In this document: positions 2,787 to 61,190 of the stretch, in pieces | Layout of the letters: each line of letters begins with the position of its first letter | Numbering within the stretch: position 1 is the first letter of the stretch | Origin: Leptonemataceae bacterium | Lineage (GTDB): Bacteria; Spirochaetota; Leptospiria; Leptospirales; Leptonemataceae | Direction: 5' to 3' | Length of the DNA stretch: 64,000 bases | Assembly (NCBI GenBank): GCA_965227295.1 | Contig: OZ245742.1 | Coordinates: 4,832,001-4,896,000 of the forward strand | Program-made: the position numbers and the translations under genes | The notes under the pieces: model-generated | What the model was told of the DNA's origin: nothing | What the model saw: the letters and a program-made list of their open reading frames with translations, nothing else | Databases searched by the model: none

Positions 2787-2827
2787 TGATTTTCGACAGC
2801 GCACTGTAAGATCCAATTTCTTCTCCC

Positions 2828-2854
2828 CCTCTGTGCCCTCTGTGCCTCTGTGGC
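2828..2854. repeat. Short tandem repeat (C)CTCTGTG x3
   Basis: CCTCTGTGCCCTCTGTGCCTCTGTGGC read directly, just upstream of the ABC-F start. Confidence 0.6.
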
Positions 2855-2860
2855 CAAAAC

Positions 2861-4789
2861 ATGCCCTCCGAAAACATCCTGTCCGCCGATCGCATCAGCA
2901 AGAGCCACGGCGACCGCAATCTCTTCACCGAACTCACGTTCGGCATCGACGCCGGCGATAAGATCGGCCTCATTGGACCGAACGGCGCCGGCAAGAGTAC
3001 ACTCTTTCGCGGACTCGCCGGGCGCGAGCCGCTGGACGACGGCCGCCTGGCGCTTCGCCGCGGCACGCGCATCGCCTATCTCGAACAGCTTCCGGAGTAC
3101 AATCCCGACGACGACCTGCGCACGCACATTTACAAAAGCGAAAGCGAGTTGGTGCGACTCATTCACGCTTACGAGTCGGCGGCGGAACGCGCGAGTCGGC
3201 ATCAGCAAGATGCGCCGGCCCTGGCCGAACTCGACCGGCTCACGAACGCCATGCACGAGCACGACGCCTGGACCTACGAGGCGGAGATCAAAAGCATCTT
3301 AAGCGAACTGGGACTGGACGATCTGAGCGTAACGATGTCGTCGCTCTCCGGCGGCATGTTGAAAAAAGTCGCGCTCGCCCATACGTTGATCGAGGACGCC
3401 GACCTCTTGTTCCTCGACGAACCCACGAACCACCTGGACGTCGAAAGCATCGTGTGGCTCGAAAAGTATCTGCGCGAAACAAAAAAGGCCGTCTTCTTAA
3501 TAACGCACGATCGTTACTTTCTCGAACGTATTACGAACCGCATCTTCGAACTGGAGCCGCCGGAGTTGCATCGCTACGAGGGCAACTACGAAACCTATCT
3601 CACCAAAAAGGCCGAGCGTGACGAACAGTTCGAACGCAGCGAGGCGAAGGCGCGCAACTTTCTGCGCACGGAGCTGGAGTGGTTGCGACGCCAGCCGAAG
3701 GCGCGCGGCACGAAACAAAAGGCCCGCATCGATCGCATCGACGTCGTGCAGAACCGCAAACAACGCAGCCAGGCCGAAGCGGCGGAGTTTCGCGTGGCCG
3801 GGCGCCGCCAGGGAAAAAAGATCCTGGAGGTCGAGAACATCGGCAAATCGTTCCCGGATGCCGACGGAAACACGCGCACCCTCTTCGAAAACTTCAGCCA
3901 CGTCTTCGGTCCCGGCGAACGCATCGGCGTGGTCGGTCCGAACGGCTCCGGCAAGTCCACGTTTCTAAAGATCCTCACGGGTAAACTCAAGCCGGACGCG
4001 GGCAACATCGACACCGGAACGAACACGCACTTCGGCTACTTCGATCAACAGAGCGATCTTTTCGCCGCCCCGGCGGACGGCGAGCGCCGGCTTATCGAAT
4101 TCGTGAAACGCGAGGCCGGAGAATTCATAAGCACCGCCGACGGCGACCGCATCGACGCCGCGCGTTTGCTGGAACGTTTCGGCTTCGACGGTCGCCTGCA
4201 ACACGGTTTTCTCAAGAATCTCAGCGGCGGCGAACGACGGCGATTGCACCTGGTCTTCGTGCTGCTCGGCAATCCGAACTTTCTGATCCTCGACGAACCC
4301 ACGAACGATCTGGACATCCAGACCCTCTCGCGTCTCGAGGATTTTCTCGGCGGCTTTGCCGGTTGCGTCCTCGTAGTTTCGCACGATCGTTACTTTATGG
4401 ATCGCATCGCCGATCGTCTGTTCGCCTTTACGAAGGACGGCCTGGTGCAATACACCGGCAGTTACTCCGACTACCTGGCCGAGCAGGAGTCGACGTCGCG
4501 CGAGCAAAACAGTGTGCCCGTTACGGAGCAGGAGAAACCGCAGACGCCGGCAAAGGCACCGGGCAAAAAACGCAGGCTATCGAACAAGGAACGGCGCGAG
4601 TACGATTCGCTCCAGGCCGAGATCGAAAAACTCGAAGCGGAGCGCTCGGAATTGGAGACGTTACTCGGTTCCGGCGAGTCGGATCACACCAAACTTGCGG
4701 CGTGGGGAGATCGGCATACGGAACTCGGTGCTTTGATTGAAGAAAAGTATGCGCGCTGGTCGGAGTTGGAAGAGTTCGCGGGAAATTGA
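2861..4789 (+). CDS. uup: ABC-F family ATPase, Uup/YfmR-like
   Basis: Two ABC cassettes (GPNGAGKST, LSGG, LDEPTNHLD; GPNGSGKST, LSGGERRR, LDEPTNDLD), no transmembrane segments, linker WLRRQPKARGTK and a C-terminal coiled-coil domain. Confidence 0.88.
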   Translation: MPSENILSADRISKSHGDRNLFTELTFGIDAGDKIGLIGPNGAGKSTLFRGLAGREPLDDGRLALRRGTRIAYLEQLPEYNPDDDLRTHIYKSESELVRLIHAYESAAERASRHQQDAPALAELDRLTNAMHEHDAWTYEAEIKSILSELGLDDLSVTMSSLSGGMLKKVALAHTLIEDADLLFLDEPTNHLDVESIVWLEKYLRETKKAVFLITHDRYFLERITNRIFELEPPELHRYEGNYETYLTKKAERDEQFERSEAKARNFLRTELEWLRRQPKARGTKQKARIDRIDVVQNRKQRSQAEAAEFRVAGRRQGKKILEVENIGKSFPDADGNTRTLFENFSHVFGPGERIGVVGPNGSGKSTFLKILTGKLKPDAGNIDTGTNTHFGYFDQQSDLFAAPADGERRLIEFVKREAGEFISTADGDRIDAARLLERFGFDGRLQHGFLKNLSGGERRRLHLVFVLLGNPNFLILDEPTNDLDIQTLSRLEDFLGGFAGCVLVVSHDRYFMDRIADRLFAFTKDGLVQYTGSYSDYLAEQESTSREQNSVPVTEQEKPQTPAKAPGKKRRLSNKERREYDSLQAEIEKLEAERSELETLLGSGESDHTKLAAWGDRHTELGALIEEKYARWSELEEFAGN

Positions 4790-4790
4790 T

Positions 4791-5231
4791 CTATTTGGAC
4801 TCATCCGATTTCTTTTTGTAATACAGTAAGGAACTAACTAAAACTCCTAAACTGGAGAAGAGGGAAGCGAAACCCGAAATTTCCTTTCCAAGAAATACCA
4901 GATAAAGTCCGCCGAGCATCCCTGTCATTATGATCGCAAATCCTAAACCTAAAGATAGGATTCGAATCCTCAGTTCATACTTCGTTTTTCCGATCTCCGC
5001 ATCGTTCGCTTTTTCGGCCATACGAAGAATGCGGTCCGCCGCTCCAGGCAAAACGTTTTCATATTTTGCAAATTGCTCGGCCGGGGGAATCGGCGCATCG
5101 TAGCTTGTCGAGATGATGTGGCGTAGAGCAGCGCGGACTTCCTGGCGCGCCTCCTCCGGAGGAACGACCTCCGGCTCTACGTTCTTTTTCGCTTGCGACT
5201 TTTTTCCTGATCTCGACTTCTTTTTGGCCAT
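4791..5231 (-). CDS. DUF2335-like small membrane protein
   Basis: PIPPAEQFAKYENVLPGAADRILRMAEK motif followed by two transmembrane helices. Confidence 0.8.
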   Translation of the reverse strand: MAKKKSRSGKKSQAKKNVEPEVVPPEEARQEVRAALRHIISTSYDAPIPPAEQFAKYENVLPGAADRILRMAEKANDAEIGKTKYELRIRILSLGLGFAIIMTGMLGGLYLVFLGKEISGFASLFSSLGVLVSSLLYYKKKSDESK

Positions 5232-5626
5232 ACGATCGACTCTTCCCAGGACTGCATTGCCAGCCTTAGATGTTTCCCCGTGTTCATGAATGCATCGCTC
5301 ATGCGTTTCTTTACATTAGTCGCAATATCCGCATCGCGAGACTGAATTAGATCATCAATAATACCGGCGACGTCTACGGCGCGTCCGAGTTCAATCGGCA
5401 CGAATTTGTAGGTATCCGCGAGCGCCTCGCGAAGCAGCCGCGCCGAGGAAGATACTTGTTCGCCGGAAGTAGTTTCCGGGGATGCATCCTGTCTTCCCGC
5501 CAGCATATTACGTAACTCTGCACAAATCAGTTCCGAATAATATTCGATTAAACGCAGATCTTCGTCTGAAACATCCTTACCAGCAACCTCGAAAGGGTCT
5601 GACTTTTTCTTGCTTGCGGAAACCAT
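5177..5626 (-). CDS. Hypothetical protein upstream of and overlapping the DUF2335-like gene
   Basis: 149-aa ORF in a lower-GC segment with a sigma70-like promoter directly upstream. Confidence 0.6.
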   Translation of the reverse strand: MVSASKKKSDPFEVAGKDVSDEDLRLIEYYSELICAELRNMLAGRQDASPETTSGEQVSSSARLLREALADTYKFVPIELGRAVDVAGIIDDLIQSRDADIATNVKKRMSDAFMNTGKHLRLAMQSWEESIVWPKRSRDQEKSRKRKRT

Positions 5627-5640
5627 AAAACCTACAATCT

Positions 5641-5670
5641 ACTATACAAAAAACGTCATACCCCTGTCAA
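5641..5670 (-). promoter_or_regulatory. Sigma70-like promoter, TTGACA-18 nt-TATAGT
   Basis: Minus strand reads TTGACA (5670-5665) ggggtatgacgttttttg TATAGT (5646-5641), 14 nt before ATG 5626. Confidence 0.55.
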
Positions 5671-5711
5671 CTCCCAACTTACACCAAATGGTGAAAATTA
5701 GCAAGGCACGC

Positions 5712-6596
5712 TCACAACCCCGCCATTTCCCGCAACTCCGCGGCGGTTTTCCCCTCGTCCATCAACTTCCGCAGCGCCAGGGAATCGTGGCGTTTGGCCA
5801 GGCGCCGGCCGTCCGCGTCGCGCAGCAGTTCGCAGTGAAAAAACGCCGGCGGTGCAAAACCCAGCGCGCGGTACAGCAACAACTGCCGCGCGGTAGACAG
5901 CAGCAGGTCCGCGCCGCGCACCACTTCGCTGACCCGCATCAACGCGTCGTCGACGACAACGGCGAACTCGTAGGCCGGCGCGTCGACGTCCCGGCGCCAC
6001 ACCAGGAAATCCCCGAAGTCCGCACCGGCCGTAAACTGCACCTTACCGAAACTTAAGTCTGCAAACGCGATCGTCTCACCGTCCGGTACACGAAAGCGCC
6101 AGTTTACACCGCCAGGATCATCCAGGGAAAAACCCGGCACCACGACAGCCGCGCTTTGAAATTCCGGCGGGCGCAGCTCCGGCGGGAACACCGGCTCCCA
6201 CCCTTCGCGGTCCGGCAGCGTACCGTCGTGTTGTTCCAGCAGGCGCGCCTGGATTTCTTTGCGCGAACGTTTGCACGGATAGATCCAGCCGCCCGCGTGC
6301 AGCCTGCGCCACTGCTTTTGATAGATCCCACATGCCAGGCGTTCGCTCTGCGTATACGGCGCAAACTCGCCGCCGACGTCAGGCCCCTCATCCCAATCCA
6401 GGCCGAAGCGTTTTAGATCTTTGACGGCGGCCGCGGCGAACTCGGGCTTGCAACGTTTGCGATCCAGGTCCTCGTCGCGATAGACAAGCGTGCCGTTCCT
6501 TTCGCGGCAGCGATCATACGCGACAGCAAAGGTCCGCGCGTGACCGAGGTGTAAGTATCCCGTAGGTGATGGTGCAACTCTGCCGCGGTAGTTCAT
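5712..6596 (-). CDS. gluQ: Glutamyl-queuosine tRNA(Asp) synthetase
   Basis: YRGRVAPSPTGYLHLGH, EDLD, YEFAVVVDD, VVRGADLL, RLAKR; GluRS catalytic domain only (~294 aa), no anticodon-binding domain. Confidence 0.88.
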   Translation of the reverse strand: MNYRGRVAPSPTGYLHLGHARTFAVAYDRCRERNGTLVYRDEDLDRKRCKPEFAAAAVKDLKRFGLDWDEGPDVGGEFAPYTQSERLACGIYQKQWRRLHAGGWIYPCKRSRKEIQARLLEQHDGTLPDREGWEPVFPPELRPPEFQSAAVVVPGFSLDDPGGVNWRFRVPDGETIAFADLSFGKVQFTAGADFGDFLVWRRDVDAPAYEFAVVVDDALMRVSEVVRGADLLLSTARQLLLYRALGFAPPAFFHCELLRDADGRRLAKRHDSLALRKLMDEGKTAAELREMAGL

Positions 6597-6653
6597 GAGA
6601 TGATGTGTTGTACGGGCACGGCCCGAGACAACAAGGTAGTATGTCAGCAAATC

Positions 6654-6780
6654 TTTTGGGCGTCTGCCCCGCCGCGCCGCGGAGGCGGCGGGGCACCGCG
6701 CTGCTCCGGGCTCCGCTTCGCTGCGGTCCGCGCTACACGCGGACTGGCCTTCGGCCACCCTGCACATCGCTGACGCGAAG
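6654..6780 (+). repeat. ~125-bp REP-like structured repeat, copy 1
   Basis: TTTTGGGCGT-hairpin-CCGCGCT...CTCCGCTTCGCT.CGGTC...GGCCTTCGGCC...ATCGCTGACGCGAAG, shared with 19313-19435 and 20787-20913. Confidence 0.85.
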
Positions 6781-6791
6781 AAGACTCATCT

Positions 6792-6901
6792 CTTCGCGCG
6801 AGGGATACGCAGGGTCGCGAAGCGAGTCTTTGCGCAGCAAAGACCGAAGCCGAAGGCGGAGCCCGTAGTAGCCCGGTCGGCGCGCAGCGCCGACGCGCCC
6901 A
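6792..6901 (-). repeat. ~125-bp REP-like structured repeat, inverted divergent copy 2
   Basis: Reverse complement reads GGGCGCGTCGGCGCTGCGCGCCGA-CCGGGCTACTACGGGCTCCGCCTTCGGCTTCGGTC...CCCTGCGTATCCCTCGCGCGAAG, the same block order as copy 1. Confidence 0.75.
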
Positions 6902-6963
6902 TACAAACATCCATCCGTTCAAACTTAAGCCGCGAGGCATGTCGGCGTACGGATCGGTTCGTC

Positions 6964-7749
6964 TTACTTATCCAGAAGATTGTCTTCGTTCTGCAATTGC
7001 GATTCCACGAACCAGTAGACGCGGCGTTCCACCAGACGCAGGGCGTCCACGTACCGACGCAGTTGTTCAATGCGACGGCGCGGCTCTCGCACGTCGAGCA
7101 CGGGGATGGCCTGGGTCTCTTCCCCGCCGCGGGGCAGATCAACGGGCACGCCGGGCGGCAGGCCGGGATCGGCGGGCTGATCCAGCTCCCGGGAATCGCG
7201 GCCGGAAAAGAAACGGTAATTATAAAAGTACGTATACAACGAACCCTTGCGCTCACCGGCCACGATGTTTACCATGAGGCCGTCAAACGGCGCGGGTTCG
7301 GCCGGGGCCGGTTCCGCATTCGCCTGTACATTCACCTCACGAACGAACCAGAACTTACGTAACAGATACGTCGTGCCGCGCTGGGCCGTGCGTTCTTCGA
7401 GAATCACATATTCAATGCGCGGTCCGTTCCATTGTAAGTAAGAGGTTTCGGTGAGGATCTTCTGCTCCGGCGAACCGTAACGGGATACGACCTCGGACCG
7501 GAGCGGAATGCGCGAACGTTCCTGTTCGTCGATGAGGTTGCTGCGTTCCAGATAACCGCGATAGGTCTCGATGCGGCGCATGAGATTATACACCTGACGC
7601 TCAAGATATACTATCTGCTCTTTCTGGTCGGCATCCGGCGGAACGTAGGTCCCCACCTGGTCGAGGGGCTGGGCTTCGAGCGCCACGCCGGCGCAGACCG
7701 CGAGCGCAAACGACATGACAAAAGACGACCTGAAACGAACGCGGGACAT
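6964..7749 (-). CDS. Hypothetical exported protein
   Basis: 261-aa ORF with a signal-peptide-like N-terminus (FALAVCAGVALEA-QP). Confidence 0.7.
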   Translation of the reverse strand: MSRVRFRSSFVMSFALAVCAGVALEAQPLDQVGTYVPPDADQKEQIVYLERQVYNLMRRIETYRGYLERSNLIDEQERSRIPLRSEVVSRYGSPEQKILTETSYLQWNGPRIEYVILEERTAQRGTTYLLRKFWFVREVNVQANAEPAPAEPAPFDGLMVNIVAGERKGSLYTYFYNYRFFSGRDSRELDQPADPGLPPGVPVDLPRGGEETQAIPVLDVREPRRRIEQLRRYVDALRLVERRVYWFVESQLQNEDNLLDK

Positions 7750-7807
7750 AAGGTTCCTTCATAGAATCGGTTGAATCGGCGCAGGTCTCCGCAAAAATCC
7801 GTCCCCA

Positions 7808-8647
7808 ATGCTCAAGAAAATCGCCCTCCGGTCTTTGCTGTTCATCGCCGGTCTCCTCCTGGCCGGCCTGATCGTCGTGTTGATCCTGCGCGTCAGCCGG
7901 GACGATCCGGAACCGGCCCGGCGGCCGTTCCTGGAAAATCTGCCGCGCCCGGCCATCTTCGCGCACCGGGGCGCCTCCGGGGACGCCGCCGAAAACACCC
8001 TGAACGCCTTCGCCCTGGCCCTCCGCCAGGGAGCGCACGTCCTGGAACTGGACGTGCATCGCAGCCGGGACGGCCACATCGTCGTCAGCCACGACCGGAC
8101 CCTCGAACGCACCCACGGCGATCCGCGGTCCATTGCGGACCTGAGCCTCGCGGAACTCCAGGAGATTGCCCCGGAGATTCCGTCGCTACGCTCCGTTTTC
8201 GCTCGCTTCCCCGGCATTCCCATCAACATCGAAATCAAGTCCCGCCACGACGAGGCCGCCCTGGATCTCTGGAAGCTGATCCTGGCCAACAATCGCCAGG
8301 ACACGGTCCTGGTGGCCAGCGGCAGCGATGCGATGATTCAACGATTCCGTGAGGTCAGCGGCGGCGCCACCGCCACCAGCGCCGGCCTCTTCGAGGCCCT
8401 GACGTTCTACGGCTGTTTCCTCGTGGACGTGCCGTGCCGGCCCGCCTTCGACGCCCTCCAGATTCCCTTCCGTCCGTTTGCGGGCATCCAGCCGGCGGAC
8501 CCGGCGTTCATTGAGTTCGCTCATCGTCACGGCCGGCCGGTCCACTACTGGACCGTCAACGAAAGTACGGACATGCAACGCCTCATCGAAGCGGGCGCGG
8601 ACGCGATCATGACCGACTACCCCGTCCGGTTTCCGACGGAAAAGTAA
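7808..8647 (+). CDS. Glycerophosphodiester phosphodiesterase
   Basis: IFAHRGASG..ENTL, LELDVH, VVSHD, NIEIK, HYWTVN, IMTDYP; N-terminal membrane anchor. Confidence 0.92.
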   Translation: MLKKIALRSLLFIAGLLLAGLIVVLILRVSRDDPEPARRPFLENLPRPAIFAHRGASGDAAENTLNAFALALRQGAHVLELDVHRSRDGHIVVSHDRTLERTHGDPRSIADLSLAELQEIAPEIPSLRSVFARFPGIPINIEIKSRHDEAALDLWKLILANNRQDTVLVASGSDAMIQRFREVSGGATATSAGLFEALTFYGCFLVDVPCRPAFDALQIPFRPFAGIQPADPAFIEFAHRHGRPVHYWTVNESTDMQRLIEAGADAIMTDYPVRFPTEK

Positions 8648-8765: not shown

Positions 8766-10048
8766 ATGGGCGCGCCTGCCGTGATCGATTCTCCCGGGAC
8801 TTCCACGCGACTCCGCGACGTTCTGGTCGTGGACGACGATCCCATGACCGCACGACTCATTGCGCACATTCTGCGCGAGACGTGCACGGTGCGCTCCGCT
8901 GAGAACGGCAGCGAGGGCCTCCGTCACATGCGGCATCGGCGTCCGGAACTTATCCTCTGCGATCTCATGATGCCGGGCATGAACGGTCAGGAGTTCTTCG
9001 CCGCCGTCAAGAATCGGCCCGAATGGCGTCAGTGCCGCTCATCTTTCTCACGGCCCGCTCGGATCCCGAGGATCGCGCTGACGGTCTGGAGTTCGGCGCG
9101 GACGACTACATCGTAAAACCATTCTACCCCCGGGAGCTCCGGGCCCGGGTACACTCGCTCTTAAAGTTACGCGAGTATCAGTTAGCCGTCGCCGATCGCA
9201 ATCGGATCATCGAGGAGGAGCTGGACATTGCCGGGCGCATCATGCAGGAACGCATCCTGCCCACCAAAATGCCGGCGTTGCCGTGCATGCGCGCGCATCC
9301 CATCTACCGCCCCATGGACAAGATCGGCGGGGACTTTTACGACGTCATCGACTTCGGTGAACGCCGCGGCCTCATTATTGCCGACGTCTCCGGCCACGGC
9401 ATCCCCGGTGCGTTCATCGCCGCGCTGACGCAAATGGCCTTTCGCCTGTGCACGTCCCGGGGCGGAGAGCCGCATGAAATCTTACAACGAATCAACGAGG
9501 AATTGCTGCAACGCTGCCTGGAAGAATTCTTCGTCACCGCCATTTATCTCGAGTACGATCCCCGGCAACGAACCATCCGCTATTGCAACGCCGGCCATCA
9601 GTGCCGGCCGGTTTTGTACCGCAACGGTGAAGTCCACGTATGGGACGGCGCATCGAGTTATCCTCTGGCCATCGTGGAGGAACTGGATGGGACGACGGAA
9701 ATCGAACAGGTTCAGCCCGGCGATCGATTGTTCTTGTACACCGACGGCATCATCGAGTGCGATGACGGCGAAGAAGTCTACGGCGACGAGCGCTTTCACG
9801 CCTTTCTTCGAGACGAGGGCCACACATCGCCCGAGGATCTTGAAGACCGCCTGCTCGGCGAGTTGCGTAAATACAGCGGCAAGGATTCCTTCTCGGACGA
9901 TCTGACCATGTTGATCCTGGAGTTTCTCGAACGCCCGGCCGGAATCAGGCCCGGCAACACAACGGGAGCGGAGTCGCACAACCAGCGTCCGGGTCCGATT
10001 GAATCACGGCCAAACCTTCACAGCCGCCCCGGACCGCAGGGTAAGTGA
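8766..10048 (+). pseudogene. Response regulator receiver + SpoIIE/PP2C phosphatase fusion (RsbU-like), split by a 1-nt frameshift at ~9025 (pseudogene or sequencing error)
   Basis: Receiver ([20 protein letters not shown]) in one frame continues as SVPLIFLTA...DDYIVKPF and PP2C ([25 protein letters not shown]) in another; one extra G in GAATGGCGTCA restores E-W-A-S-V-P. Confidence 0.85.
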
Positions 10049-10815
10049 CGGCCAGTGCAGCCACAGCTCTTGAACTACGGTATCGTTTTGTTCGTTCGAA
10101 CACGCCCCGAATCGTGGTGTAAGTCGCGGCCAGTGTATATTAAGATCATTTTGGTTACAACTGATTCCAGCTGACGAACGGAGGTCATGCCGGGGGATGT
10201 GGTAAGGCGGACCGGAACGGCGTCTTCATCGTAAAGATCCAGCAAGCGAATCCGCACCCCGGAGCCCCGCTCTATTCGCGGGGCGGAGCGGGTGCGGATT
10301 CGCGCCTTGCAAAACGAATCACCACAACTCCGAAGAGCCGTAGCAAAAATAATCCCTTCATGATTGCACAACTTACTTTACGTTTCTCACGATAGACGCC
10401 GCGAACCACAGCTCTTGAACTACGGTATCGTTTTAGTCGTTCGAACACGCCCCGAATCGAGGTGTAAGTAACGTCCAGTGTACATTAAGCTTTTTTTGGT
10501 TACAACTGATTCCAGGGGCAAGGCCACGCTTGTCGTGGCCGCGGCAGTTGTTCCCCTCCCACGGAGGTCATGCCGGGGAAATGTGGGGTGCGCACCGGAA
10601 CGGCGTCTTCGTCGCAGGAAACGTTACGATAGTTGAGTCGCAAACCGACGCCCGGGTCGACTCCGGCGTGCTTTGCAAAACGAATCACCACAACTCCGAA
10701 GAGCCGTAGCAAAAAAAAATCCCTTCATGATTGCACAACTTACCTTACGTTTCTCACGGTAGACGCCGCGAACAAGGCGCACCGGAACGGCGTCTTCGTC
10801 GCAGGAAACGTTACG
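9968..10815 (-). repeat. Tandem array 1 of the ~329-bp structured repeat family (2 full units plus fragments)
   Basis: CCACAGCTCTTGAACTACGGTATCG starts at 10061 and 10406; 10777-10815 re-copies 10589-10627; 9971-9995 is the exact reverse complement of 24627-24651. Confidence 0.9.
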
Positions 10816-10878: not shown

Positions 10879-11544
10879 ATGCTCGCGCGCCACATCATCG
10901 TCACCGCCCCGCTGATCATCGCCCTGCTCTGGTCCTGCGGTGACGTCGAAGCTCCGCAAGAAAACACGGCCCTCACTGAAACCGACGATCGCCCCGCCAT
11001 CGTTTTTCTCGGCGACAGTCTAACGGCCGGCCGCGGCCTCGCCGCGTCGGAGAGTGCGCCAGCGCTCATCCAGGAAAAAATCGACGCGGCCGATCTGGAG
11101 TATCGCGTCATCAACGCCGGTCGCTCCGGCGATACGACGGCAGGCGGGCTCGCGCGATTGCCCTGGTACCTGCGCCCCGAGGTGAATCCGAAAAAGGTCG
11201 TCATCGGCCTGGGTTCGAACGACGCCATGCGCGGCCTGTCGGTCTCCGAAATCGAAGCCAACCTGCGCAAAATCGTCCAGGCGATTCGAGAGTACGACGC
11301 ATCCATCGACATCTTCCTGTATCAAATGTACATCTTCCCGAACATGGGACCGGAGTACTCCGACAACTACGAGAGCGCGTTTCAAAACGTGGCGCGGGCC
11401 GAGGACATCACCCTGCTGCCCTTCCCGCTGGAAAACGTCGGCGGCGTGGCGGAGCTGAATCAGGACGACGGCATTCACCCGAATGTCGAAGGCACGCAGA
11501 TCGTGGCCGAGAACATCTGGAAGGCCCTGCGCCCGCATCTGTAA
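10879..11544 (+). CDS. SGNH/GDSL arylesterase (TesA-like), probable lipoprotein
   Basis: FLGDSLTAG, NAGRSGDTT, LGSND, DGIHPN; LLWSC lipobox-like signal. The longer ORF start lies inside the repeat array. Confidence 0.9.
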   Translation: MLARHIIVTAPLIIALLWSCGDVEAPQENTALTETDDRPAIVFLGDSLTAGRGLAASESAPALIQEKIDAADLEYRVINAGRSGDTTAGGLARLPWYLRPEVNPKKVVIGLGSNDAMRGLSVSEIEANLRKIVQAIREYDASIDIFLYQMYIFPNMGPEYSDNYESAFQNVARAEDITLLPFPLENVGGVAELNQDDGIHPNVEGTQIVAENIWKALRPHL

Positions 11545-15600: not shown

Positions 15601-15776
15601 GACACCGAGGACCGAGGGGGCGAGGGTTTGGGGAGAGGTTACGTGATTGCGCGTCTTTTGCGCATGAACTGCTTTTATTTTCTGACTTCGCCATGCAAAA
15701 ATAGGCGCGCATGCGCCCGCAGACAATAAGCTTACGCACAGCCTCCACAAACCCCGGCTCCTCGGTCCTCGGTGTC
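15601..15776. repeat. 176-bp inverted-repeat (MITE-like / long hairpin) element
   Basis: 17-bp perfect terminal inverted repeat GACACCGAGGACCGAGG / CCTCGGTCCTCGGTGTC, extending imperfectly inward; lies between convergent genes. Confidence 0.75.
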
Positions 15777-19312: not shown

Positions 19313-19435
19313 TTTGGGCGTCTCGGAAGGCGCCAGGCCCAGGCGCCTTCCGACCGCGCTCCTCCGGGCTCCGCTATCGCTTCGGTCGCGCCAGGCGCGA
19401 CGGCCTTCGGCCCCCTCCGGATCGCTGACGCGAAG
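19313..19435 (+). repeat. ~125-bp REP-like structured repeat, copy 3, followed by further hairpins to ~19610
   Basis: TTTGGGCGT...CCGCGCTCCTCCGGGCTCCGCTATCGCTTCGGTC...GGCCTTCGGCC...ATCGCTGACGCGAAG. Confidence 0.85.
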
Positions 19436-20759: not shown

Positions 20760-20786
20760 ACGGAGGATGAAGTGGATGTGAGATTC

Positions 20787-20913
20787 TTTTGGGCGTCTGC
20801 CCGGCCGCGCCGCGGTTGCGGCCGGGCACCGCGCTTTCCGCGACTCCGCTTCGCTCCGGTCCGCGCTCCGCGCAGACTGGCCTGCGGCCATCGCTCCAAT
20901 CGCTGACGCGAAG
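20787..20913 (+). repeat. ~125-bp REP-like structured repeat, copy 4
   Basis: Colinear with 6654-6780. Confidence 0.85.
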
Positions 20914-20941
20914 AATAAACCTCTCGACCTCCCGGCGGGCT

Positions 20942-23109: not shown

Positions 23110-24561
23110 GTGAAGACCGTCGCCATCGCCGGCGCGGGCGGTTTCATCGGCCGCACGCTCATCGACAAAGCCCTGCGGGCTAAGTTCCACATCGTCGGGC
23201 TCAGTCGCAGCGCCCCGCCCGGCCACACCGACACCAGCGGCATTGAATGGCGCCGCTGCGACCTCTATTCCCTCCTCGATGCCGAAGCCGCGCTAGAGGG
23301 CGTGGACTACGCCGTGTATCTCGTGCACTCCATGCTGCCGAGCGCGCGGCTCATTCAGGGAAACTTCGCGGATACGGATCTGATCCTCGCCGACAATTTC
23401 GCCCGCGCGGCCCGCAAGAACAAACTGAAACACATCGTATATTTAGGCGGGATCATTCCGAACGAGGGCGAAGCCGAAGATGAAACGAAGTTAAGCGAAC
23501 ACCTGCGCTCGCGACTGGAAGTGGAACGCACGCTGGGCGGCCGCGGGACGCCCCTCACCGCGGTGCGCGCCGGTCTCGTGGTGGGTCCGGGCGGTTCCTC
23601 GTTTTCGATTCTGGAAAAACTGGTGCAACGCCTGCCCATGATGATCTGTCCGGCCTGGACGAACACGCGGTCCCAACCGGTGGCGCTGGAAGATGTGATC
23701 ACCGCCATCGATTACTGCATCGGCCGCAAAGCGAGCTACGGCCGCAGCCTGGATGTCGCCGGCCCGGACGTCCTCACGTACCGCGAAATGATGGAGATTA
23801 CCGCGAAGAGCATGGGACTCCGCCGGTTCTTGTTGACCGTGCCGTTCTTTTCACCGCGTCTTTCAAAACTCTGGGTCTCTTTGTTTTCCGGCGCTTCGAT
23901 GAACCTGGTCTCACCGCTCATCGAAAGCCTGAAGCACGAGATGGTGGCGCGCCCCGATCCTTTAACCGAAAAGATGCCGCTGAAACGAATCGGTTTTCGC
24001 GAGGCCGTGCAGGAATCGGTGCACGCACCGCAAAACAATCCGTCGCCGTTTCGCATCAAACGTCTGCTTCAGAATCGTTATCGCGTTACCAAGTTCGTGC
24101 GTTCTATTCAACGCCTGCCACGTCCGGCCGGTCGCGACGCGCTCTGGATTGCCAGGGAGTACGGACGCTGGCTCCCGCGATTCCTCTGGCCTTTTTTGCG
24201 CGTAACGACGAACGACAACGGGGACTGTGCGTTTTTTATTCGCGGCCTGCCGTTTTCGTTGCTGGAGCTGGAACTCTCGTCGGAACGCAGCAGCCCGGAC
24301 CGTCAGCTCTACTACATTACCGGCGGTATCCTGGCGGAACAAACCCGGCGCGGGCGTCTGGAATTTCGCATTGTGCCCGACGGCGAAAGCGTGCTTGCGG
24401 CCATCCACGACTTCGCTCCGGCTTTGCCGTGGTTCGTGTACAACTACACCCAGGCCCTGGTCCATCTTATGGTCATGCGCCACTTCGGCCGCCACCTGGA
24501 TAAACTGGACCGGCTCGCGGCCGTTACCGTGAAGAAAAGAGAGTATGTCGTGAAACAGTGA
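23110..24561 (+). CDS. NAD(P)-binding atypical SDR / epimerase (YbjT-like)
   Basis: GAGGFIG, AVYLVHSM, IVYLGG, LSEHLRSR, VVGPGGSSF. Confidence 0.85.
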   Translation: MKTVAIAGAGGFIGRTLIDKALRAKFHIVGLSRSAPPGHTDTSGIEWRRCDLYSLLDAEAALEGVDYAVYLVHSMLPSARLIQGNFADTDLILADNFARAARKNKLKHIVYLGGIIPNEGEAEDETKLSEHLRSRLEVERTLGGRGTPLTAVRAGLVVGPGGSSFSILEKLVQRLPMMICPAWTNTRSQPVALEDVITAIDYCIGRKASYGRSLDVAGPDVLTYREMMEITAKSMGLRRFLLTVPFFSPRLSKLWVSLFSGASMNLVSPLIESLKHEMVARPDPLTEKMPLKRIGFREAVQESVHAPQNNPSPFRIKRLLQNRYRVTKFVRSIQRLPRPAGRDALWIAREYGRWLPRFLWPFLRVTTNDNGDCAFFIRGLPFSLLELELSSERSSPDRQLYYITGGILAEQTRRGRLEFRIVPDGESVLAAIHDFAPALPWFVYNYTQALVHLMVMRHFGRHLDKLDRLAAVTVKKREYVVKQ

Positions 24562-25919
24562 AGGGTCTTTTTTGGCTACGGCTCGCGGGAGTTGTGGAGT
24601 TTCGTTTTGTTAAGAACGCTTACTTCGACCCGGACGCTGGTTGTGCGACTCAGCTACGATAGCGATTCTTGCGGCAAAGACGCCGGGGACTTATGCTTTC
24701 CGCTGATGCGGAAAGCCGGCGGTTCAGAACTCTCGCTGAAGCGAGAATTCTGCCGGTGCGCCTTACCACATTCCCCGGCATGACCTCCGTGCGTCAGCTG
24801 GAACCAGTTGTACCCGAAAAGGGCTTAATTTACGTTGGCCGCTACTTACATCACGATTCGGGGCGTGTTCGAACGAATCAAACGTTTCCGGTAGTTCAAG
24901 AGCCGCGGTTCGTTCACGTTGCCGTGAGAAACAGAAGGTATGTTGCACAATGTTGAAGGGGTTGATTTCGCTACGGCTCGCGGGAGTTGTGGAATTTCGT
25001 TTTGTTAAGAACACTGCGTTCGACCCGGACGTCGGTTTGCGAGTCAGCTACCGCAGCGTTTCTTACGGCGAAGACGCCGTTCCGGTGCGCGCCCCACATA
25101 TCCCCGGCACAACCTCCGTGGTCGCCTGGAACCAGTTGTGACCATAAAAGTCTTAATCCAGATTGGCCTTAACTTACACCACGAGTCGGGGCGTGCTCGA
25201 ACAAATAAAAACGTTTCCGGTAGCTCAAGAGCTGTGTCTCGCGACGTTTGCCGTGAGACACACAAGGTAAGTTCCGCAATGGTGAAGGGATTGATTTGGC
25301 TACGGCTCTTCGGAGTTGTGGAGTTTCGTTTTACAAAGAACGTTTGCTTCGACCCGGACGTCGGTTTGCGAGTCAGCTACCGCAGCGTTTCTTACGGCGA
25401 AGACGCCGTTCCGGTGCGCGCCCCACATATCCCCGGCACAACCTCCGTGGTCGCCTGGAACCAGTTGTGACCATAAAAGTCTTAATCCAGATTGGCCTTA
25501 ACTTACACCACGAGTCGGGGCGTGCTCGAACAAATAAAAACGTTTCCGGTAGCTCAAGAGTCGCGGTTCGTAGCGGTTGCCGCGAGAAGCATGAAGTACA
25601 TTGCGCAACCGTGAAAGGCCTTTTTTGGCTACAGCGAAGCGGGAGTTGTGGTATGTCGTTTTGCTAAGAACGCGGCATTCGACCCGGACGCTGGTTTGCG
25701 ACTCAGCTACCGCCGGTGTCTCTTGCGGCGAAGACGCCGGGGACTTATGCTTTCCGCCGATGCGGAAAGCCGGCGGTTCAGAACTCTCGCTGAAGCGAGA
25801 ATTCTGCCGGTCCGCCTTACCACATTCCCCGGCATGACCTCCGCCAGTGGGGAACCAACTGCCGCGGCCCCAACAAGCGGGGCCTTGCCGACACCGGACG
25901 TTGGTTTGCGACTCAGCTT
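24512..25919 (+). repeat. Tandem array 2 of the ~329-bp structured repeat family (about 4 units)
   Basis: Anchor GCTAC(G/A)G at 24575, 24970, 25299, 25628 (spacings 395, 329, 329); 25019-25231 reads identical to 25348-25560. Confidence 0.93.
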
Positions 25920-25932
25920 CCCCCGATGAAAC

Positions 25933-26715
25933 TCAGCGCGCGATCACTTCGCACCAGGCCTGGTGAAAGACGGCATCTTCCTGTCGCGCCCAACGTCGCA
26001 ATGCATCGGCGGAGCGCTTTAAATCATCCGGACTCGCGCCGACCGTTTGGCCGTCCGCCGTTTCGATGCCCCGCGCCAGATAGTCGGCAATGTAGGGCGT
26101 ACGCGCGTACGTTTCGTAACCGGCACCGGGACGAACATAAGCAAAACCCGCACGGCGGACGAGCACGTGCAGCGACTTGCCGCGGGACGTCGCGCCGCCG
26201 TTCGTATCCTGCATGTGCCGGTAGAGAGTGATCGCCCGCGCCGCACCGGCATCGAAGGGCGCCAGTAAAAAACCGTCCCAGTCCGGCAGACGCAAGGCCA
26301 ACACGCCGCCCGGCCGCAGGACACGGCGCAGTTCCCGCAGCGCGGCCTCGGGATCCGCAAGATGTTCGAAGAGCGCGTGGGAAAAGATCGCGTCGAAGGC
26401 GTCGTCCGGAAAAGGCAGGGCATAGACCGATGCGCATTGGGCGACGGCGTTTGCGATACCGCGTGCTTCGAAATACGCCCGGGCCGCGGCGACCTGCGAC
26501 GGTTCGAGGTCCACGGCCGTGAGTCTACCCGGCGCGCACCGCGGCGCAATCCCGGCACTGATCGTTCCCGGCCCGCAACCCGCGTCCAGCACGTCCATAC
26601 CCGGCAGCACGTGCGGTAAAAAAAACGCGGCGCAGGTAAACGCCGTTCGTTCGCCCATGAAGGCCACGGCGTGCTCTCCGTGGCCGGGGGTGTAGTATTC
26701 AGGTACTTGACGCAT
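25933..26715 (-). CDS. Class I SAM-dependent methyltransferase
   Basis: VLDAGCGPG, LPFPDDAFDAI, RVLRPGG. Confidence 0.9.
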   Translation of the reverse strand: MRQVPEYYTPGHGEHAVAFMGERTAFTCAAFFLPHVLPGMDVLDAGCGPGTISAGIAPRCAPGRLTAVDLEPSQVAAARAYFEARGIANAVAQCASVYALPFPDDAFDAIFSHALFEHLADPEAALRELRRVLRPGGVLALRLPDWDGFLLAPFDAGAARAITLYRHMQDTNGGATSRGKSLHVLVRRAGFAYVRPGAGYETYARTPYIADYLARGIETADGQTVGASPDDLKRSADALRRWARQEDAVFHQAWCEVIAR

Positions 26716-38399: not shown

Positions 38400-41300
38400 C
38401 TACGAGCCGGGATCGTCGGCACCAAAGGCCAGCTGATGTGAGTGTATGGCCTGCTCCATGCCTTTCACGACGGACGCCCGCAATTCTGTGACATCACTGA
38501 TGCCGATGTCCAACAGACCGGATTCCTGCGCATCATGGTCGGCGCGGGACTTTCGATTGAAGTCTTCCATAAACTTCCGGTGATTCTCACGAGCGCCGTC
38601 CTCGTCCCCGTTTGCAAGAAGTTCACCATGCTTGCGACCTTCAAAAAGGTCGTATGCGGCCTGTCCGCCCATCACAGCAACCAGTGAGGAATTCAAGGCG
38701 ACATACGCAATGCCCGGTCGCAGAAACTTACTGAACGCATGAATCTGCCGTCCGCCATAGTTCTGATGGAGGACCACAGACACCACAGGAACGCGCCCCA
38801 GGATATTTACATCCAGCGACTCGGCACCAATAGCCTGAATACGCAAACGCTCCTGCCGCGTCCCGGGTACGAAGCCCGGGGCATTCGAAAGCATCACCAC
38901 CGGTAGCCCGCGGCGGTTCACCAGCTCCATGAACACACGGAACTTCTCGGTACCGGGTGCATCCGGGGCTCCTCCCATGATCTGCGGCTGATCCGCGAGT
39001 ATCGCCACCACGCGACCGTCGAGTCGGCCGAGGCCGGTTACCAACGCCGGCCCCGCCGCAGGGTCATTCATCTCCCGGTACATTTCAATGAAACTGCCGT
39101 TGTCGCAAATCGCTTCGATCACCGAACCAACGATGTCGTAGGCTTGATTGACCTCGACCGGAATGTTCGCCGGACCGGCCGGTCCGACAGGAGACCGACT
39201 TCCCAGGGGAGAAAGCAGGGCAATCAGGTTCTGAGCGTAGTCAAAAGCTCCGGCAAAAGACGAGGCGATAAATGCGGCGTACTGCCTTACGGCCTGGAGC
39301 TGTTCTCGCGTTTCGTTACCGGAGCGAACATACACCAGTGCATCCGCAGATGCATTCAGCTCCACGCGATGCAAGCCGTCGGGATGCGTCAGAATATTAA
39401 TGTGCACGCCGCGCGTATCGCGCAGAGTGTTCAGAAAATCCATGCGCGCTCTGAGCCCGGCACGATCCTCGAAGCGGTCCGGAGGGCCCATTTCCTGAAA
39501 CCAACGGCGACCGAATATTAAGATTCGCGCCGACTTTGTACGAGCGGCGATCTTCAACAACTCCCGCGCCCTGATTGCCGTGGCACTGGAGCGCACACCA
39601 AAACGACTGCGAGTTCCCAGTAAGAGCGTTCGTCGGCCTCCCAGGCGGGCAAAACCCCCGACCACCGCGCCGGCAGCGAAGTACTCATCCTTAAGAGACC
39701 AGAAATCGCCATCATCAACGTTTTGCTGGAGAATGCGCTCGTTGACGACAGATCGGCCGCGCAGGGCCGTGCGGGTATAAACCTCATCCGATTCCGCGGC
39801 GCCTCCCTTGCGCTCGATTCGATCGCGTTCCCGTTCAGCACCGAACAGGCGGTGAATGCGCCGGACGATGGCGATTAAATGTATCTTGTCTCGTGCAATG
39901 AAATCCGCAATGCCGGTCCACTTGCCCATGATCTTCGCGCCGCCGATTTCGTAGTTCGTCAGATCTTCTCCCGTGACTGAGCGAATGACGTTGGAACCGG
40001 TGAGGACGCGATACGATTCCGGTGAGTCCAGCAGTACCTGCAAGGTAGCCTGACTTGATCCGTAGACATCCAGGCCGGCGGAAGAGCCGATCCCCACTGC
40101 TACGGTGAAAAGCGGAGGCCGGTCCTCTGCGATGAACTCCGGAAATTGAAATTGCCGGCCAATTTCCGCGAGCATGTTCCGCAACGTTTCGTCGGCATTG
40201 CGCTCGGTATAACGCGCGAAAGTCTCCGCGTCCACGTTCTCGGCCAACAGAGTATTCATCATGAATCCCTGCGCCGCGCGATTCAGGGAGATGACTCCTT
40301 CACGAATGTTCGCTCCGGCCCCGTCGTTCCAGACGTAAAGAGGTCGTCCCAGGCGATACGCGATGTAGGCCGCCGCAACGTATTTCAGTCCCTCAAGATT
40401 TCCGGTGGCGCCGCCGCGCACGCGACTGTCTTTCATAAAGAAGATTGCCGGCAGGCCATCGATCTGGCCTTCAAAGATTGAGGCGCCCACGACCAGCCTC
40501 TGCTTCGCGCCGGTCTCAGGATTCACGACCTGCTGGTCGTCAATCGAAGGGACCAGGATCTCCTGCACGGAATCCACATCGTCGAAGCACTCGCGAACCC
40601 AGAAATCAATGGGCCATTTGTCCCGGGCTAACATTCGCTCAACCCGTGGGTCCTCGGGCGCAGGTAACCCGGAGTAGGGATTGCGAAAATCCACATCCAG
40701 AAGATGAAAACGGATCGTCTCGCCGTCCCCATGAAAACCAATCATGCGTCGGGAGTAGGTCCCGCTGGCCCGGGCGTGTACATCCAGGTGCAGGATGCTC
40801 GCCTCAATCTGAGTAATTTTCAGGAAGGGAAAATGCTCCGTAAGCTCACGATTCAGCTCCCAGTAATCAAAATCGCCACCGAAGCCGCTGAAGTCGAAGC
40901 GGGAATCGCCGACGTGCGTTAGAATCTCGACGCGATGACCGTTTTCTCTGGGAATTTCCAGGGGTGGATTCTTGGCGATAAAGCGGGCCGCAAAGAGTAC
41001 CTGCACCGCATCCATAATCGCTTTCCAGATCCGTCGGGCGAAGGGGGTTTCTGCGCCCTGCTCGGAAGCCGCGTCCACAGCCGCAAAGGAAACCAGGCGA
41101 CGATCGTCCCCATTCGCCAGAACGTAGAGATAGACGGTCTCCAGAGGCGAATAGAGCCGGCGGACCCGAGAAGATTGCTTCAGAAATTTTAACTTACTCT
41201 CCAGTTCACTTTGTACCCAGGCCGGCGCTTCCGACGGGATCAACTCGCCCGTCTCGTCCGACTCCAGGGATTCACTGAATCCCGTAACGAGAGACATGAC

Positions 41301-44300
41301 GTCTTCCACGTCGAATACGAGCAGAGGATGTAGTTTATCGAGTGCTTCTTTGTAGAGATCCGCGCCGGAGGTTTCATCGTCTTCCGCAAAGAGCTCCAGG
41401 GTCCGCATCTCCGCCACGTCATCCGGAATGCGATGTACCAGAGGACGCACATACTCCACGAGAGACTCGTCCAGCTCGGTCATCTCTTGCTGCATCAAGG
41501 CGGAAAGACATTCCCGGATTTCGGCGCCCTGCTCTCGGGATCGCGCGAGCATATGTACCAGGCACCGCGTAATGGCCCGCCGGGCTTTATCGTTTACATT
41601 CGCGAGATGTAGATAGAGATATGCGTGGGATAGAACAATGCGCTGGTCCTCCTGATCACGGACGTGCTTGCGATAATTATAGGCATCGAGGACCGGGGAG
41701 ATTACGTCCTGGAAATTCTGCGAAGGCTTGTAATCTCCCAATCGCTTTTGCGCCATGAACAGTTGGAGTTCGGCACGGTACGAGATATCCGCCACGACAA
41801 TCGGCGAGAACAGTCTACGCATTCGGGTATAGAACGAAAGGATCTGGATTGCCTGCTTTCGTAAGACAGAGCGCACCTCGTACTCATAGCGATCTTCGAT
41901 GATGTTCTCCAGGATTTCCAGAAAGCCGTCCGGCAAAGACGATGTCGGGATGTAACCGCGAATAACGGAGTCCATGATCTTCAGGCAACGCGAAAGGTTT
42001 CGCTGCGGGTATTCCGCGAAGATGCTCTCGATGTCCTTTTGGTATAAGGTCTCAACGAGACTGGTTGCCCGACGTCGACGCCGGCCGACTGCAGGCTGTT
42101 CCGTGACCGCAACAGCGTCAAAATCCTCCTCATCCTCCGGGTCCACAATAGCGAGGACCTCGCCTTCGGAAATACTGCGGCCCAGAATCCTGCCGTCGGA
42201 AGTCTTTCCGAGTTGAAGCTTCGAAATGTCGCCGTTCTCCAGGAGATAGGTCAGGCGACCGTCGCGGCCGGCGTAGATTGTCGTCTCCATCTTCATGGCA
42301 GAAACTACAATGAGCGGATCGCCTTTCCGGACTTCCGTTCCCACTGCGAGTTCTCCACCGGATGCCGAGCCGGCGAATTTTACGAAAGTCGCCTGAAATG
42401 GTGCGCGCACCAGGTCGAGGTTGTCTTCATCTCCGTCACCACCCTCGGCGCGAATCTTCATGCGATAGTAGTGAATCTTGTCGTCACTGTCTTTGATGCG
42501 CAGAACGGTGTATGAGGGTTTATCATCGGTGCGAATGCGCAGTGAGCGGTTCCCGAAACGAACCAGGTATTCGTCCTCCGCATCCGCGATGCGTCCCAGA
42601 CCGATGCGACCACTGTATTCGTCATTAATATAGACGAAGAAGTTACTCATGGAACGCTGAACGAAACGCACACGGTAGTGCGATGAACCGTATTCGACAA
42701 GAAAGACCTGTCGGACTTCTTCCTTGATGGGGAGTTGATCCGCCTGCTCCGGATCATGGCGCCGGGCTATTTCCCCTGCGCGCTCGCGGATACTACGCAC
42801 GTATTCCGTAAAGGCCCCGAAACGCACGGCCATAATCCGACGCCGATCATAGTCGCCGGGGTCCGATTCCTGGCCGCTTTCCAGTTCCGGATAGTCGCCG
42901 AGCAGGCGATTCGTATAGTCCGGCTCGCGAAACGCATCGTGCCGGACGATTCTTAGCAATTGGGCAACGTTTGTTAATGTGCCCTTGATATAGAGTTCCT
43001 GCAAAGCGCGCTCCAGGCGCATTAAGGCCTGGGCCCGATCACTGCCCCGGACGATCACCTTGCCGATCATAGGATCGTAGTACGGTAGAACTCGATCCCC
43101 CTGTCGAAAACCGAAATCGCAACGCACGCCGTTAAACGTAGGGAGGTCTAACCGGACAATCTTGCCGGGGGCCGGGGCATATCCATTCTCCGGATCCTCG
43201 GCGTAGATACGGCATTCAATAGCATGATCGATCCGGTCGAATTGAAAGCGCCGCTCGCGGATAACTTCCACCGGTAGATCACATCCGCGCCCGTCGAAAT
43301 AGCGCACCTGCCAGGAAGCCAGATCCACGCCCAGGGACTGGTCCGTTACGGCATATTCCACCTGAAGGCGAGTGTTCATTTCGAGGAAACCAAACTCCCC
43401 GGTGTCCGCGTCGTAGAGGAATTCCACGGTACCGGCTCCGCCACCCTCTGAATAACCGGAAATGTCCGCCATGTTCTCCGCGGCCTCGAGAAGAAGCCGG
43501 GAGCGATCGGGCTCCAGGAAGGAGTGTCCGCTTTCTTCTATGATCTTCTGGTTGCGGCGCTGCACGGCGCACTTACGGATTCCCACCGCGAGATTATTGA
43601 AAATCTGCACTTCGATGTGCACCGGCCGGGTGATCAGCTTTTCAAGATAATAGTCGTCGTTATCGTAGAGGTCGTTGCCGATGCGCTGGGCCGATTCCAC
43701 CGCCGCCGTCAGCTCCGACTCCCGAAAGACCGGTTGCATGCCTTTGCCACCCCCGCCCTGGTCCAGCTTGATCAATACCGGATATCCAATGCGCGCCGCC
43801 TCCTGTGCGGCGTGCTCAAGATCCCGGATTTTTTCGCTGCCTTCAAAAACAGGAACGTTGTTCTGCTTCGCGAGCGCGCGCGCATCGAGCTTGTTGCCAA
43901 CCTTGCGCATCACGGAGGCCGGCGGTCCCATGAACATGATATCTCGCTGAAATTCGCGGGAACACACTCCGAGAGCATCTACGAAATCGACATTCTCCGA
44001 CAGAAAACCGTATCCGGGATAAACGGCATTCGCACCAGAGAGAACGGCGGCCGCCGCAATCGTGGGAATGTGGGTGTAGTTGTTGGCATCGCCGATGAGC
44101 ACCGTCTCGTCGGCAAACTCGTACCAGGATTGGCCGATGTCGGGCTCCGTGACAACCGCCACGGAGGGAATCCCCTCTTCGTGCAATGCGAGAAAGAAGC
44201 GTTTCGCGATTTCGCCGCGGTTGGCGACCAGGACCTTGCTAAGCTTATGATCACGCCCACCGTCATCGTGACGGCGGCGCTCCCGCGTACGCCGGTTTAA

Positions 44301-61180: not shown

Positions 61181-61190
61181 TCAGTACTTC

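Follow-up and report, generated by a model that had tools for sequence, protein, structure and literature searches.

BIME-2, a class of bacterial interspersed mosaic elements (BIMEs), consists of tandem, alternately oriented repetitive extragenic palindromic (REP) units, which are extragenic and lineage-specific and bind gyrase (PMC2817692). BIME-2 and atypical BIMEs, in which Y and Z REPs with linkers follow one another in alternating orientation, are described in E. coli, Stenotrophomonas and Xanthomonas (PMC2817692, PMC3333891). TnpA-REP cleaves at numerous positions and has been proposed to generate circles whose ends vary and to add units (PMC3333891). In Pseudomonas fluorescens SBW25, REPINs form tandem clusters of inverted doublets (PMC3116915). 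[quoted passage not shown] This report concerns an array-forming repeat of a Leptonemataceae bacterium (GenBank assembly GCA_965227295.1), studied from a 64,000-nt stretch of contig OZ245742.1 (forward-strand positions 4,832,001 to 4,896,000), hereafter the window. The window holds two arrays of the repeat, array 1 (24512–25919, + strand) and its homologue on the opposite strand, array 2 (9968–10815, − strand). The 330-nt unit is a doublet in which two diverged monomers, A and B, stand in inverted orientation, and the family is probably a non-autonomous, recombining intergenic DNA repeat which works like BIME-2 and REPIN arrays and whose enzyme has been lost or is unrecognised. This genome (G000) was compared with two sister species of the same genus (G001 and G002), all three being 93–94% complete.

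The array family works like the REP/BIME repeats and is not a member of them, as its unit is not a tagged palindrome and no REP-associated tyrosine transposase (RAYT) accompanies it. The arrays resemble BIME-2 in being extragenic and lineage-specific, in occupying more than 100 loci, in the alternation of two related unit types at regular spacing, in variable unit number and in being a target of other mobile elements. Unlike BIME-2, they repeat with a period of 330 nt, their monomers are ∼165 nt long with a non-palindromic core of ∼62 nt, and they have neither a conserved stem-loop with a GTAG foot nor a RAYT. Inverted doublets that can fold back (in the sister species), tandem doublet arrays and persistence within a lineage are shared with REPINs; in contrast to REPINs, singlets outnumber doublets in the sister species (one doublet among 15 cores and one among 23), array ends are not fixed and a RAYT is again lacking. 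Like the GTAG and CGTC REPs, as these are portrayed in the portions of the sources used, the repeats lie behind genes as dimers and clusters, and the A core has both tags on its reverse strand, but neither is at the foot of a 6–13-bp stem, and the main B type does not keep them. MITEs are likewise non-coding, 70–300 bp in size and next to genes, and either half-rotation of the unit could be framed by inverted termini, yet the arrays are without fixed ends, target duplication or a resident insertion sequence (IS) with matching ends. No description of this family, and no integrase using REP-type repeats as attB, was found in the literature listings and abstract openings covered (subscription papers mostly outside the scope, supplements excluded).

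Architecture of the repeat unit

When half A was compared with the reverse complement of half B, a score of 34.7 was obtained, against 19.1 ± 3.0 in shuffles (best of 60, 25.7). Four intermediate copies in G000 proved to be complete A-like monomers when read on the reverse strand, and they show the A and B monomers to be related, aligning to both (z 6.4–13.4 to A and 6.4–17.9 to the main B type, with none of 200 shuffles as high). Each monomer is directional and ∼165 nt long, an A/B pair giving the 330-nt period, and comprises a ∼70-nt lead and a ∼62-nt, non-palindromic core of conserved boxes at fixed spacing. The spacer between boxes 2 and 4 was 27–28 nt in 165 of the 181 G000 A cores in which both boxes were found. 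In total, 174 A and 212 B cores were located in G000, and most arrays with several cores alternate A and B. Conserved runs (at least 6 columns at 90% or more) took up 110 of the 330 columns, where 31 were expected. The consensus period was 330 nt, and lengths from 328 to 331 nt were all common.

Array ends clustered in two broad junction zones and avoided the cores, 31 of 230 falling inside a core where 39% were expected. No target duplication was detected at the array ends, the flank repeat being 4.74 nt against 4.81 nt in the control. Five optional inserts fold (−17 to −37 kcal/mol), with G000 copy numbers of 32 (P1), 19 (P2), 16 (P3), 28 (P3b) and 12 (P4); all but two copies were within arrays, including every copy of P1 and P2, and insert variants visibly retained their stems. 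In all three species the core is broken up by hairpin inserts of 20–65 nt, which it accepts between boxes 1 and 2. The window has a second family of GC-rich hairpin repeats (6652–6792, 19313–19415 and 20785–20925); Rfam gave no family for it at gathering score, and at a few sites it has the P3 module in common with the arrays.

Number, genomic placement and assembly of the arrays

An earlier reading of the window, made from its sequence without database searches and here called the sequence-only reading, had suggested that the unit be sought across the genome by BLASTN. The family is genome-wide: a single unit as BLAST query gave 161 matches across G000, and a profile built from 60 units gave 349 pieces amounting to 72.7 kb, or 1.2% of the 5.94-Mb genome. 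After pieces were merged and three reverse-strand echoes dropped, 115 arrays remained, two of them being halves of loci that an inserted element has divided; 24 of the 115 loci were scored as a single core. Against gene positions from our own gene caller (4,896 genes), 109 of the 115 arrays touched the 3′ end of a gene. Sixty-one lay between convergent, 48 between co-directional and 6 between divergent gene pairs, compared with a background of 254 convergent gaps among 1,923 of at least 100 nt. The neighbours of the arrays, read by eye, were ordinary, unrelated genes with no common function, and genes between closely spaced arrays, read in the same way, were also ordinary. A surplus on the lagging-strand side (72 of 115, p 0.009, origin and terminus placed by GC skew) was recorded and is not relied on.

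The arrays are no assembly artefact, as far as this can be tested. The sequence-only reading had allowed for such an artefact; in the Logan contigs of run X1, all four array ends are reached from unique flanks, and no record spans a whole array. Summed depth in the repeat bins was 2,400–8,100 against ∼150 in the flanks, and a contig within a 213-nt tract shared by two units of array 1 had a depth of 281 against the same ∼150. Runs X1 and X2 may be the assembly's own source, so these data are supportive and give no independent proof.

Tests for coding capacity and RNA structure

Column conservation showed no codon periodicity (p 0.17), no purifying selection was detected in any frame (pN/pS 0.62–1.01, with new stops in all six frames) and a Pfam scan of three chance open reading frames (ORFs) over the arrays gave no match. 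A protein relic was rejected, there being no codon period and no frame under purifying selection. No Rfam family was found in the window at gathering score, and over nine loci the only match was a chance one (E 0.96) outside the repeats. The description of the unit in the sequence-only reading as non-coding, unrecognised and possibly mobile holds. As it remarked, frames are not kept: the consensus period of 330 nt is a multiple of three, but all lengths from 328 to 331 nt are common.

The same reading had proposed an array of a long structured non-coding RNA, and the hairpins and loop variants which it quoted are all present in the sequence. Those four hairpins and one more had 83.8% paired cells, compared with 83.5% after shuffling, and 10 double-sided changes against 8.7, a count equalled or exceeded by 214 of 500 shuffles. 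A covariation score for the hairpins was matched by 7 of 500 shuffles, and relatedness alone can give such a score. The quoted hairpins consist mainly of bases that do not vary and of G-C/G-U flips; in 15 of 27 rows from the three species the UUCG hairpin loses its central A-U pair without compensation, and the UUCG loop is a minority variant, present in 31 of 175 matches. Mutual information, calculated from 148–237 observations per column, placed non-complementary columns at the top of the long-range covarying pairs. The consensus folded at −30.2, whereas column shuffles gave −22.4 ± 4.0 (n = 25, with one better than the consensus) and the other strand −22.6, and ten single G000 units had a mean fold z of about −0.5 on both strands. 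As there is no compensatory covariation and the fold falls within the shuffle range, these data do not bear out a long structured RNA.

No promoter-like site was found in the unit, and terminator-like sites were at chance level. ARAGORN detected no tRNA in the window, and the absence of an adjacent mobile-element gene reported by the sequence-only reading agrees with the Pfam scan, in which none of the 37 window ORFs was such a gene. Features of CRISPR or guide arrays were not seen: the variable windows are 4–10 nt long and recur at many loci, and no effector was present in the flanks. No likeness to attC, dif or sigma-54 sites was seen by eye.

The core in the genus and beyond

The two-box pattern (15 nt apart) occurred 173 times in G000, 12 times in G002 and 8 times in G001, and in none of 153 other Leptospirales; a reversed-pattern control also gave no match. 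A model of the core sequence, built from 27 cores, gave 15 matches in G001 and 23 in G002 (E ≤ 1e-4, 150 candidates scored per genome), which include 7 and 8 training rows respectively. The cores of the sister species retain boxes 1, 2 and 4, with 27–28 nt between boxes 2 and 4 in 29 of 38, some of the others being mis-scored, and are nearly all single. Each sister species has one inverted A/B doublet, in opposite order in the two, behind a gene which we take from its sequence to be FliY/FliN-like, and in G000 an array lies behind the same gene. The two doublets fold into a hairpin (z −5.5 and −7.7), as any inverted repeat folds; the G000 unit does not. Real folding is limited to the optional inserted hairpins and the symmetric doublets of the sister species.

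Both G001 and G002 have a core in four corresponding gaps, three of them after the motB, fliH and fliY/N-like genes and one ahead of rplU; of these names, FliH alone comes from Pfam. Three of the four common core sites follow flagellar genes. When 16 matching gaps were printed from G000, one held the array family and two held another repeat; a weak core of G002 is matched by one additional G000 array. The three genomes differ in core copy number by a factor of about ten, and the majority of sites are not common to them. Array sites thus turn over, but some copies persist for long periods with their boxes kept. The core is older than this species, and the three genomes give a series from singlet to doublet to array.

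Outside these genomes, the exact core pattern was found in five stretches of a genome-contig collection, all consistent with G001 or G002 contigs, in one metagenome stretch without the other boxes and in no viral contig. Model searches gave no match in 150 other genomes of a phylum sample and one marginal match (E 0.03) in 39 genomes of the family outside the genus, and no plasmid or phage matched the core. The large distribution searches score few candidates per genome, and their negative results are to be read as not found rather than absent.

Local amplification and exchange between arrays

Unit identity was 87.5% within arrays (21 pairs) and 79.3% between arrays (1,749 pairs), and the higher identity within arrays points to local amplification. 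Neighbouring variable windows were nearly unlinked, with excess information of at most 0.074 of the entropy over 21 window pairs, compared with a linkage of 0.58–0.62 under simulated clonal descent; a simulated star burst gave few shared 8-nt alleles, and the multi-base alleles observed recur at 10–48 loci. The copies are patchworks and therefore require frequent short-tract exchange. This shuffling of alleles was no stronger at box 2 than elsewhere. The arrays alternate A and B, sit behind stop codons, differ in location from species to species and swap short tracts with each other.

Resident mobile elements and integrase islands

An HUH motif scan of the predicted proteins listed none. Nine resident IS and intron copies, compared with the unit ends, scored no better than shuffles; IS481, IS1595, IS3, IS5, IS1182 and group II introns, as we name them by recognition of their sequences, were rejected as partners since they have no similarity. 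IS110 was rejected because its one copy lies in the other repeat family and its ends are unrelated, and ISL3, considered for a resemblance of its ends, because it is present as one fragment with unrelated ends. Beside the sister-species cores no consistent nuclease family was found among the 39 of 70 listed ORFs that were scanned.

Several of these elements were observed in settings of their own. The single intact IS110-family element (G000 C1, about 95250–96730) has a ∼250-nt upstream non-coding end and adjoins the end of one copy of the GC-rich family, within which IS1182-like copies are also found. IS1595-like elements form head-to-tail dimers 8 bp apart (G000 C1:8754–11253 and 5924296–5926795). 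A perfect 14-nt tandem repeat of ∼1 kb (G000 C1, about 4552310–4553330), which may be real or an assembly effect, adjoins a group II intron and an ISL3 fragment, and a similar short-unit run is present at 20360.

Beyond the Xer-like pair, G000 encodes two tyrosine integrases which are absent from G001 and G002. One is at the start of a 12.7-kb island (G000 C1:2989216–3001925) whose insertion has divided an A core; the break is at a direct repeat of 11 bp that overlaps box 2, with inverted arms. This 11-mer occurs 134 times in the genome, 126 of them within arrays, and the insertion site coincides with the hairpin-insert site of all three species. The second island (G000 C1, about 4208433–4226250), whose integrase is 33% identical to the first, splits a different repeat family at a 7-bp direct repeat, also with inverted arms. 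The two islands share their second and third genes, and the second island has a tail-fibre-like gene. Among 41 further genomes of the family, 4 have distant relatives of the integrases (25–29%). Both islands are probably passengers which use abundant repeats as safe targets. At G000 C1:1034815–1035969, box 1 of an A core is interrupted by an IS481-like element, with a target duplication of 7 bp.

The two arrays of the window and their neighbours

Array 1 has the order A-B-A-B-A-B-A-(partial B) and ends in a rearranged junction, a P3 hairpin insert (25845–25887) and an A-core stub. Its A cores, all on the + strand, lie at 24574–24635 (boxes 1 to 4 starting at 24574, 24588, 24602 and 24625), 24969–25030, 25298–25359, which carries the UUCG-loop allele, and 25627–25689. 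The B monomers, diverged A homologues in inverted orientation on the − strand, lie at 24677–24866, 25070–25194 and 25399–25523, followed by the partial B at 25731–25843. The first B contains the twin-hairpin insert P2 (24686–24752) and the partial B a second P2 (25740–25806), the two P2-bearing monomers being 98% identical over 123 nt. The four head-to-tail units had been reported with spacings of 395, 329 and 329 nt; re-measured from anchors at 24588, 24983, 25312 and 25642 these were 395, 329 and 330 nt, with a TRF period of 329, and the longest is 329 nt plus the 66-nt P2 insert. A tract of 213 nt (25019–25231, + strand) recurs exactly 329 nt downstream, in units 2 and 3, and is a recent local duplication or conversion.

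The inverted homologous array noted at ∼9968–10815 was found there. Array 2 runs from a partial B through an A core (10711–10650), a B with P3b (10610–10447, the insert at 10519–10556), an A core in which the long palindrome P1 (10249–10300) replaces box 4 (10345–10249) and a further B (10227–10102) to a rearranged stub.

Upstream of array 1 is a gene for an NAD-binding epimerase-like protein (23110–24561, + strand, by Pfam scan), whose final ∼16 codons and stop lie within the array; in G001 and G002 the homologues of this gene end sooner, and no core follows them. A convergent methyltransferase gene (25933–26715, − strand) has its stop 13 nt past the end of array 1. The final ∼27 codons of a SpoIIE-type phosphatase gene (9023–10048, + strand) are within array 2, which a GDSL lipase gene (10879–11544, + strand) adjoins; no core was found in the gap preceding the lipase orthologues of G001 and G002.

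Elsewhere in the window, hybrid polyketide synthase–non-ribosomal peptide synthetase genes occupy 51437–63941 on the − strand, and one of these proteins, of 3,247 residues, has PilZ domains after an adenylation domain. A 1,994-residue single chain combining biotin carboxylase, carrier and carboxyltransferase (38400–44384, − strand) adjoins a biotin-ligase-like gene. An intergenic pair of 28-bp inverted repeats 120 nt apart (15601–15776) has a similar counterpart at G000 C1:1218150–1218420 and may represent a third small repeat family.

Discussion

Under the reading that we favour, that of a non-autonomous recombining repeat, an array fragment whose ends vary would be excised or copied and inserted beside the end of a gene, where it would seed a new site. 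The seeding enzyme would be a strand-transfer enzyme, as proposed for TnpA-REP, that is lost or unrecognised. Arrays may then grow locally through unequal recombination or slippage, and short-tract conversion between the conserved boxes may shuffle the variable windows. The boxes would be kept by a protein that reads them, and the placement at gene ends would mostly reflect what selection tolerates, with effects on transcript ends or supercoil relief as a possible side effect.

Several observations weigh against this reading. No Y1/RAYT transposase was detected in the three genomes of the genus (PF01797 and NF047646, with positive controls detected), so the HUH/RAYT partner suggested by the sequence-only reading was not found, and 42 genomes of the family gave one weak RAYT match. 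The REP/BIME unit is an imperfect 20–40-nt palindrome with a GTAG or CGTC foot and a stem maintained through complementary changes, which the core is not, and the G000 doublet, unlike a REPIN, is too diverged to fold as a hairpin. From the right end of the main B type to box 4, the base-by-base mapping is ambiguous. Neither an excision intermediate nor an exact empty allele was seen, and at both window loci the sister species have different genes alongside. At four sites G001 and G002 have a core in the same gap, with the boxes kept and the spacers changed, and such sites fit host selection as well as mobility.

A core selected by the host as a binding site at gene ends, for gyrase, a nucleoid organiser or a termination factor, would make the amplification in G000 a by-product of recombination without a dedicated mobiliser. 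The conservation of the boxes as primary sequence at a near-constant spacer, the surplus at convergent gaps, the four shared sites and the gyrase binding of BIME-2 (in the cited part of PMC2817692) all speak for it; the tenfold difference in copy number, the mostly unshared sites, the neighbours without common function and the inserts interrupting the core in three species do not, and we regard this account, which is compatible with the favoured one, as unlikely. An element of the 3′ untranslated region or an array of processed non-coding RNAs, the monomer being read in the sense of the preceding gene, would explain why 14 of 28 measurable B ends lie 1–12 nt past a stop codon in the gene's sense, and self-folding inserts are indeed tolerated between boxes 1 and 2 and the consensus folds better on one strand. 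The lack of compensatory covariation in the base unit, a fold within the shuffle range, a merely weak polarity relative to adjacent genes (p 0.047 upstream, 0.13 downstream) and the missing promoter, terminator and Rfam signals make it distinctly improbable.

We give still less credence to attachment-site fields, in which a tyrosine integrase recombining at box 2 would excise and reinsert unit circles and insert the hairpins by the same reaction. The 11-bp repeat at which the first island splits an A core, its concentration in arrays, the restriction of the integrase to the expanded genome and the common position of the hairpin inserts are as expected from such a process. Against it, the sister integrase splits a different repeat family in like manner, which gives the islands the look of repeat parasites, G001 and G002 have cores without the integrase, array ends avoid cores, and shuffling is no stronger at box 2. 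The decayed repeat of a 110-residue protein domain, to which the consensus length of 330 and several insert sizes near multiples of three would be suited, is largely refuted and has hardly any standing left: besides the absent codon periodicity, the pN/pS values and the stops in six frames, lengths of 328, 329 and 331 nt are as common as 330 nt, the unit has inverted symmetry and Pfam gave no match.

A bolder form of the favoured reading, put forward tentatively and with more doubt than confidence, is that the family may be a REP/BIME-like replicator of a new build, with a 62-nt, non-palindromic recognition core at fixed spacing and no HUH transposase. Three stages of such a replicator might then be present in one genus, with shuffling of a few bases at a time and a putative enzyme or host protein as the recogniser.

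The repeat rewrites the C-termini of proteins, and an IS481 copy and an integrase island have landed in it. BIME-type architecture here arises from a non-REP unit in genomes without a detectable RAYT, which means either that there is a second route to this architecture or that an enzyme can depart while its repeats keep turning over. The three genomes form a natural series for the origin of such arrays.

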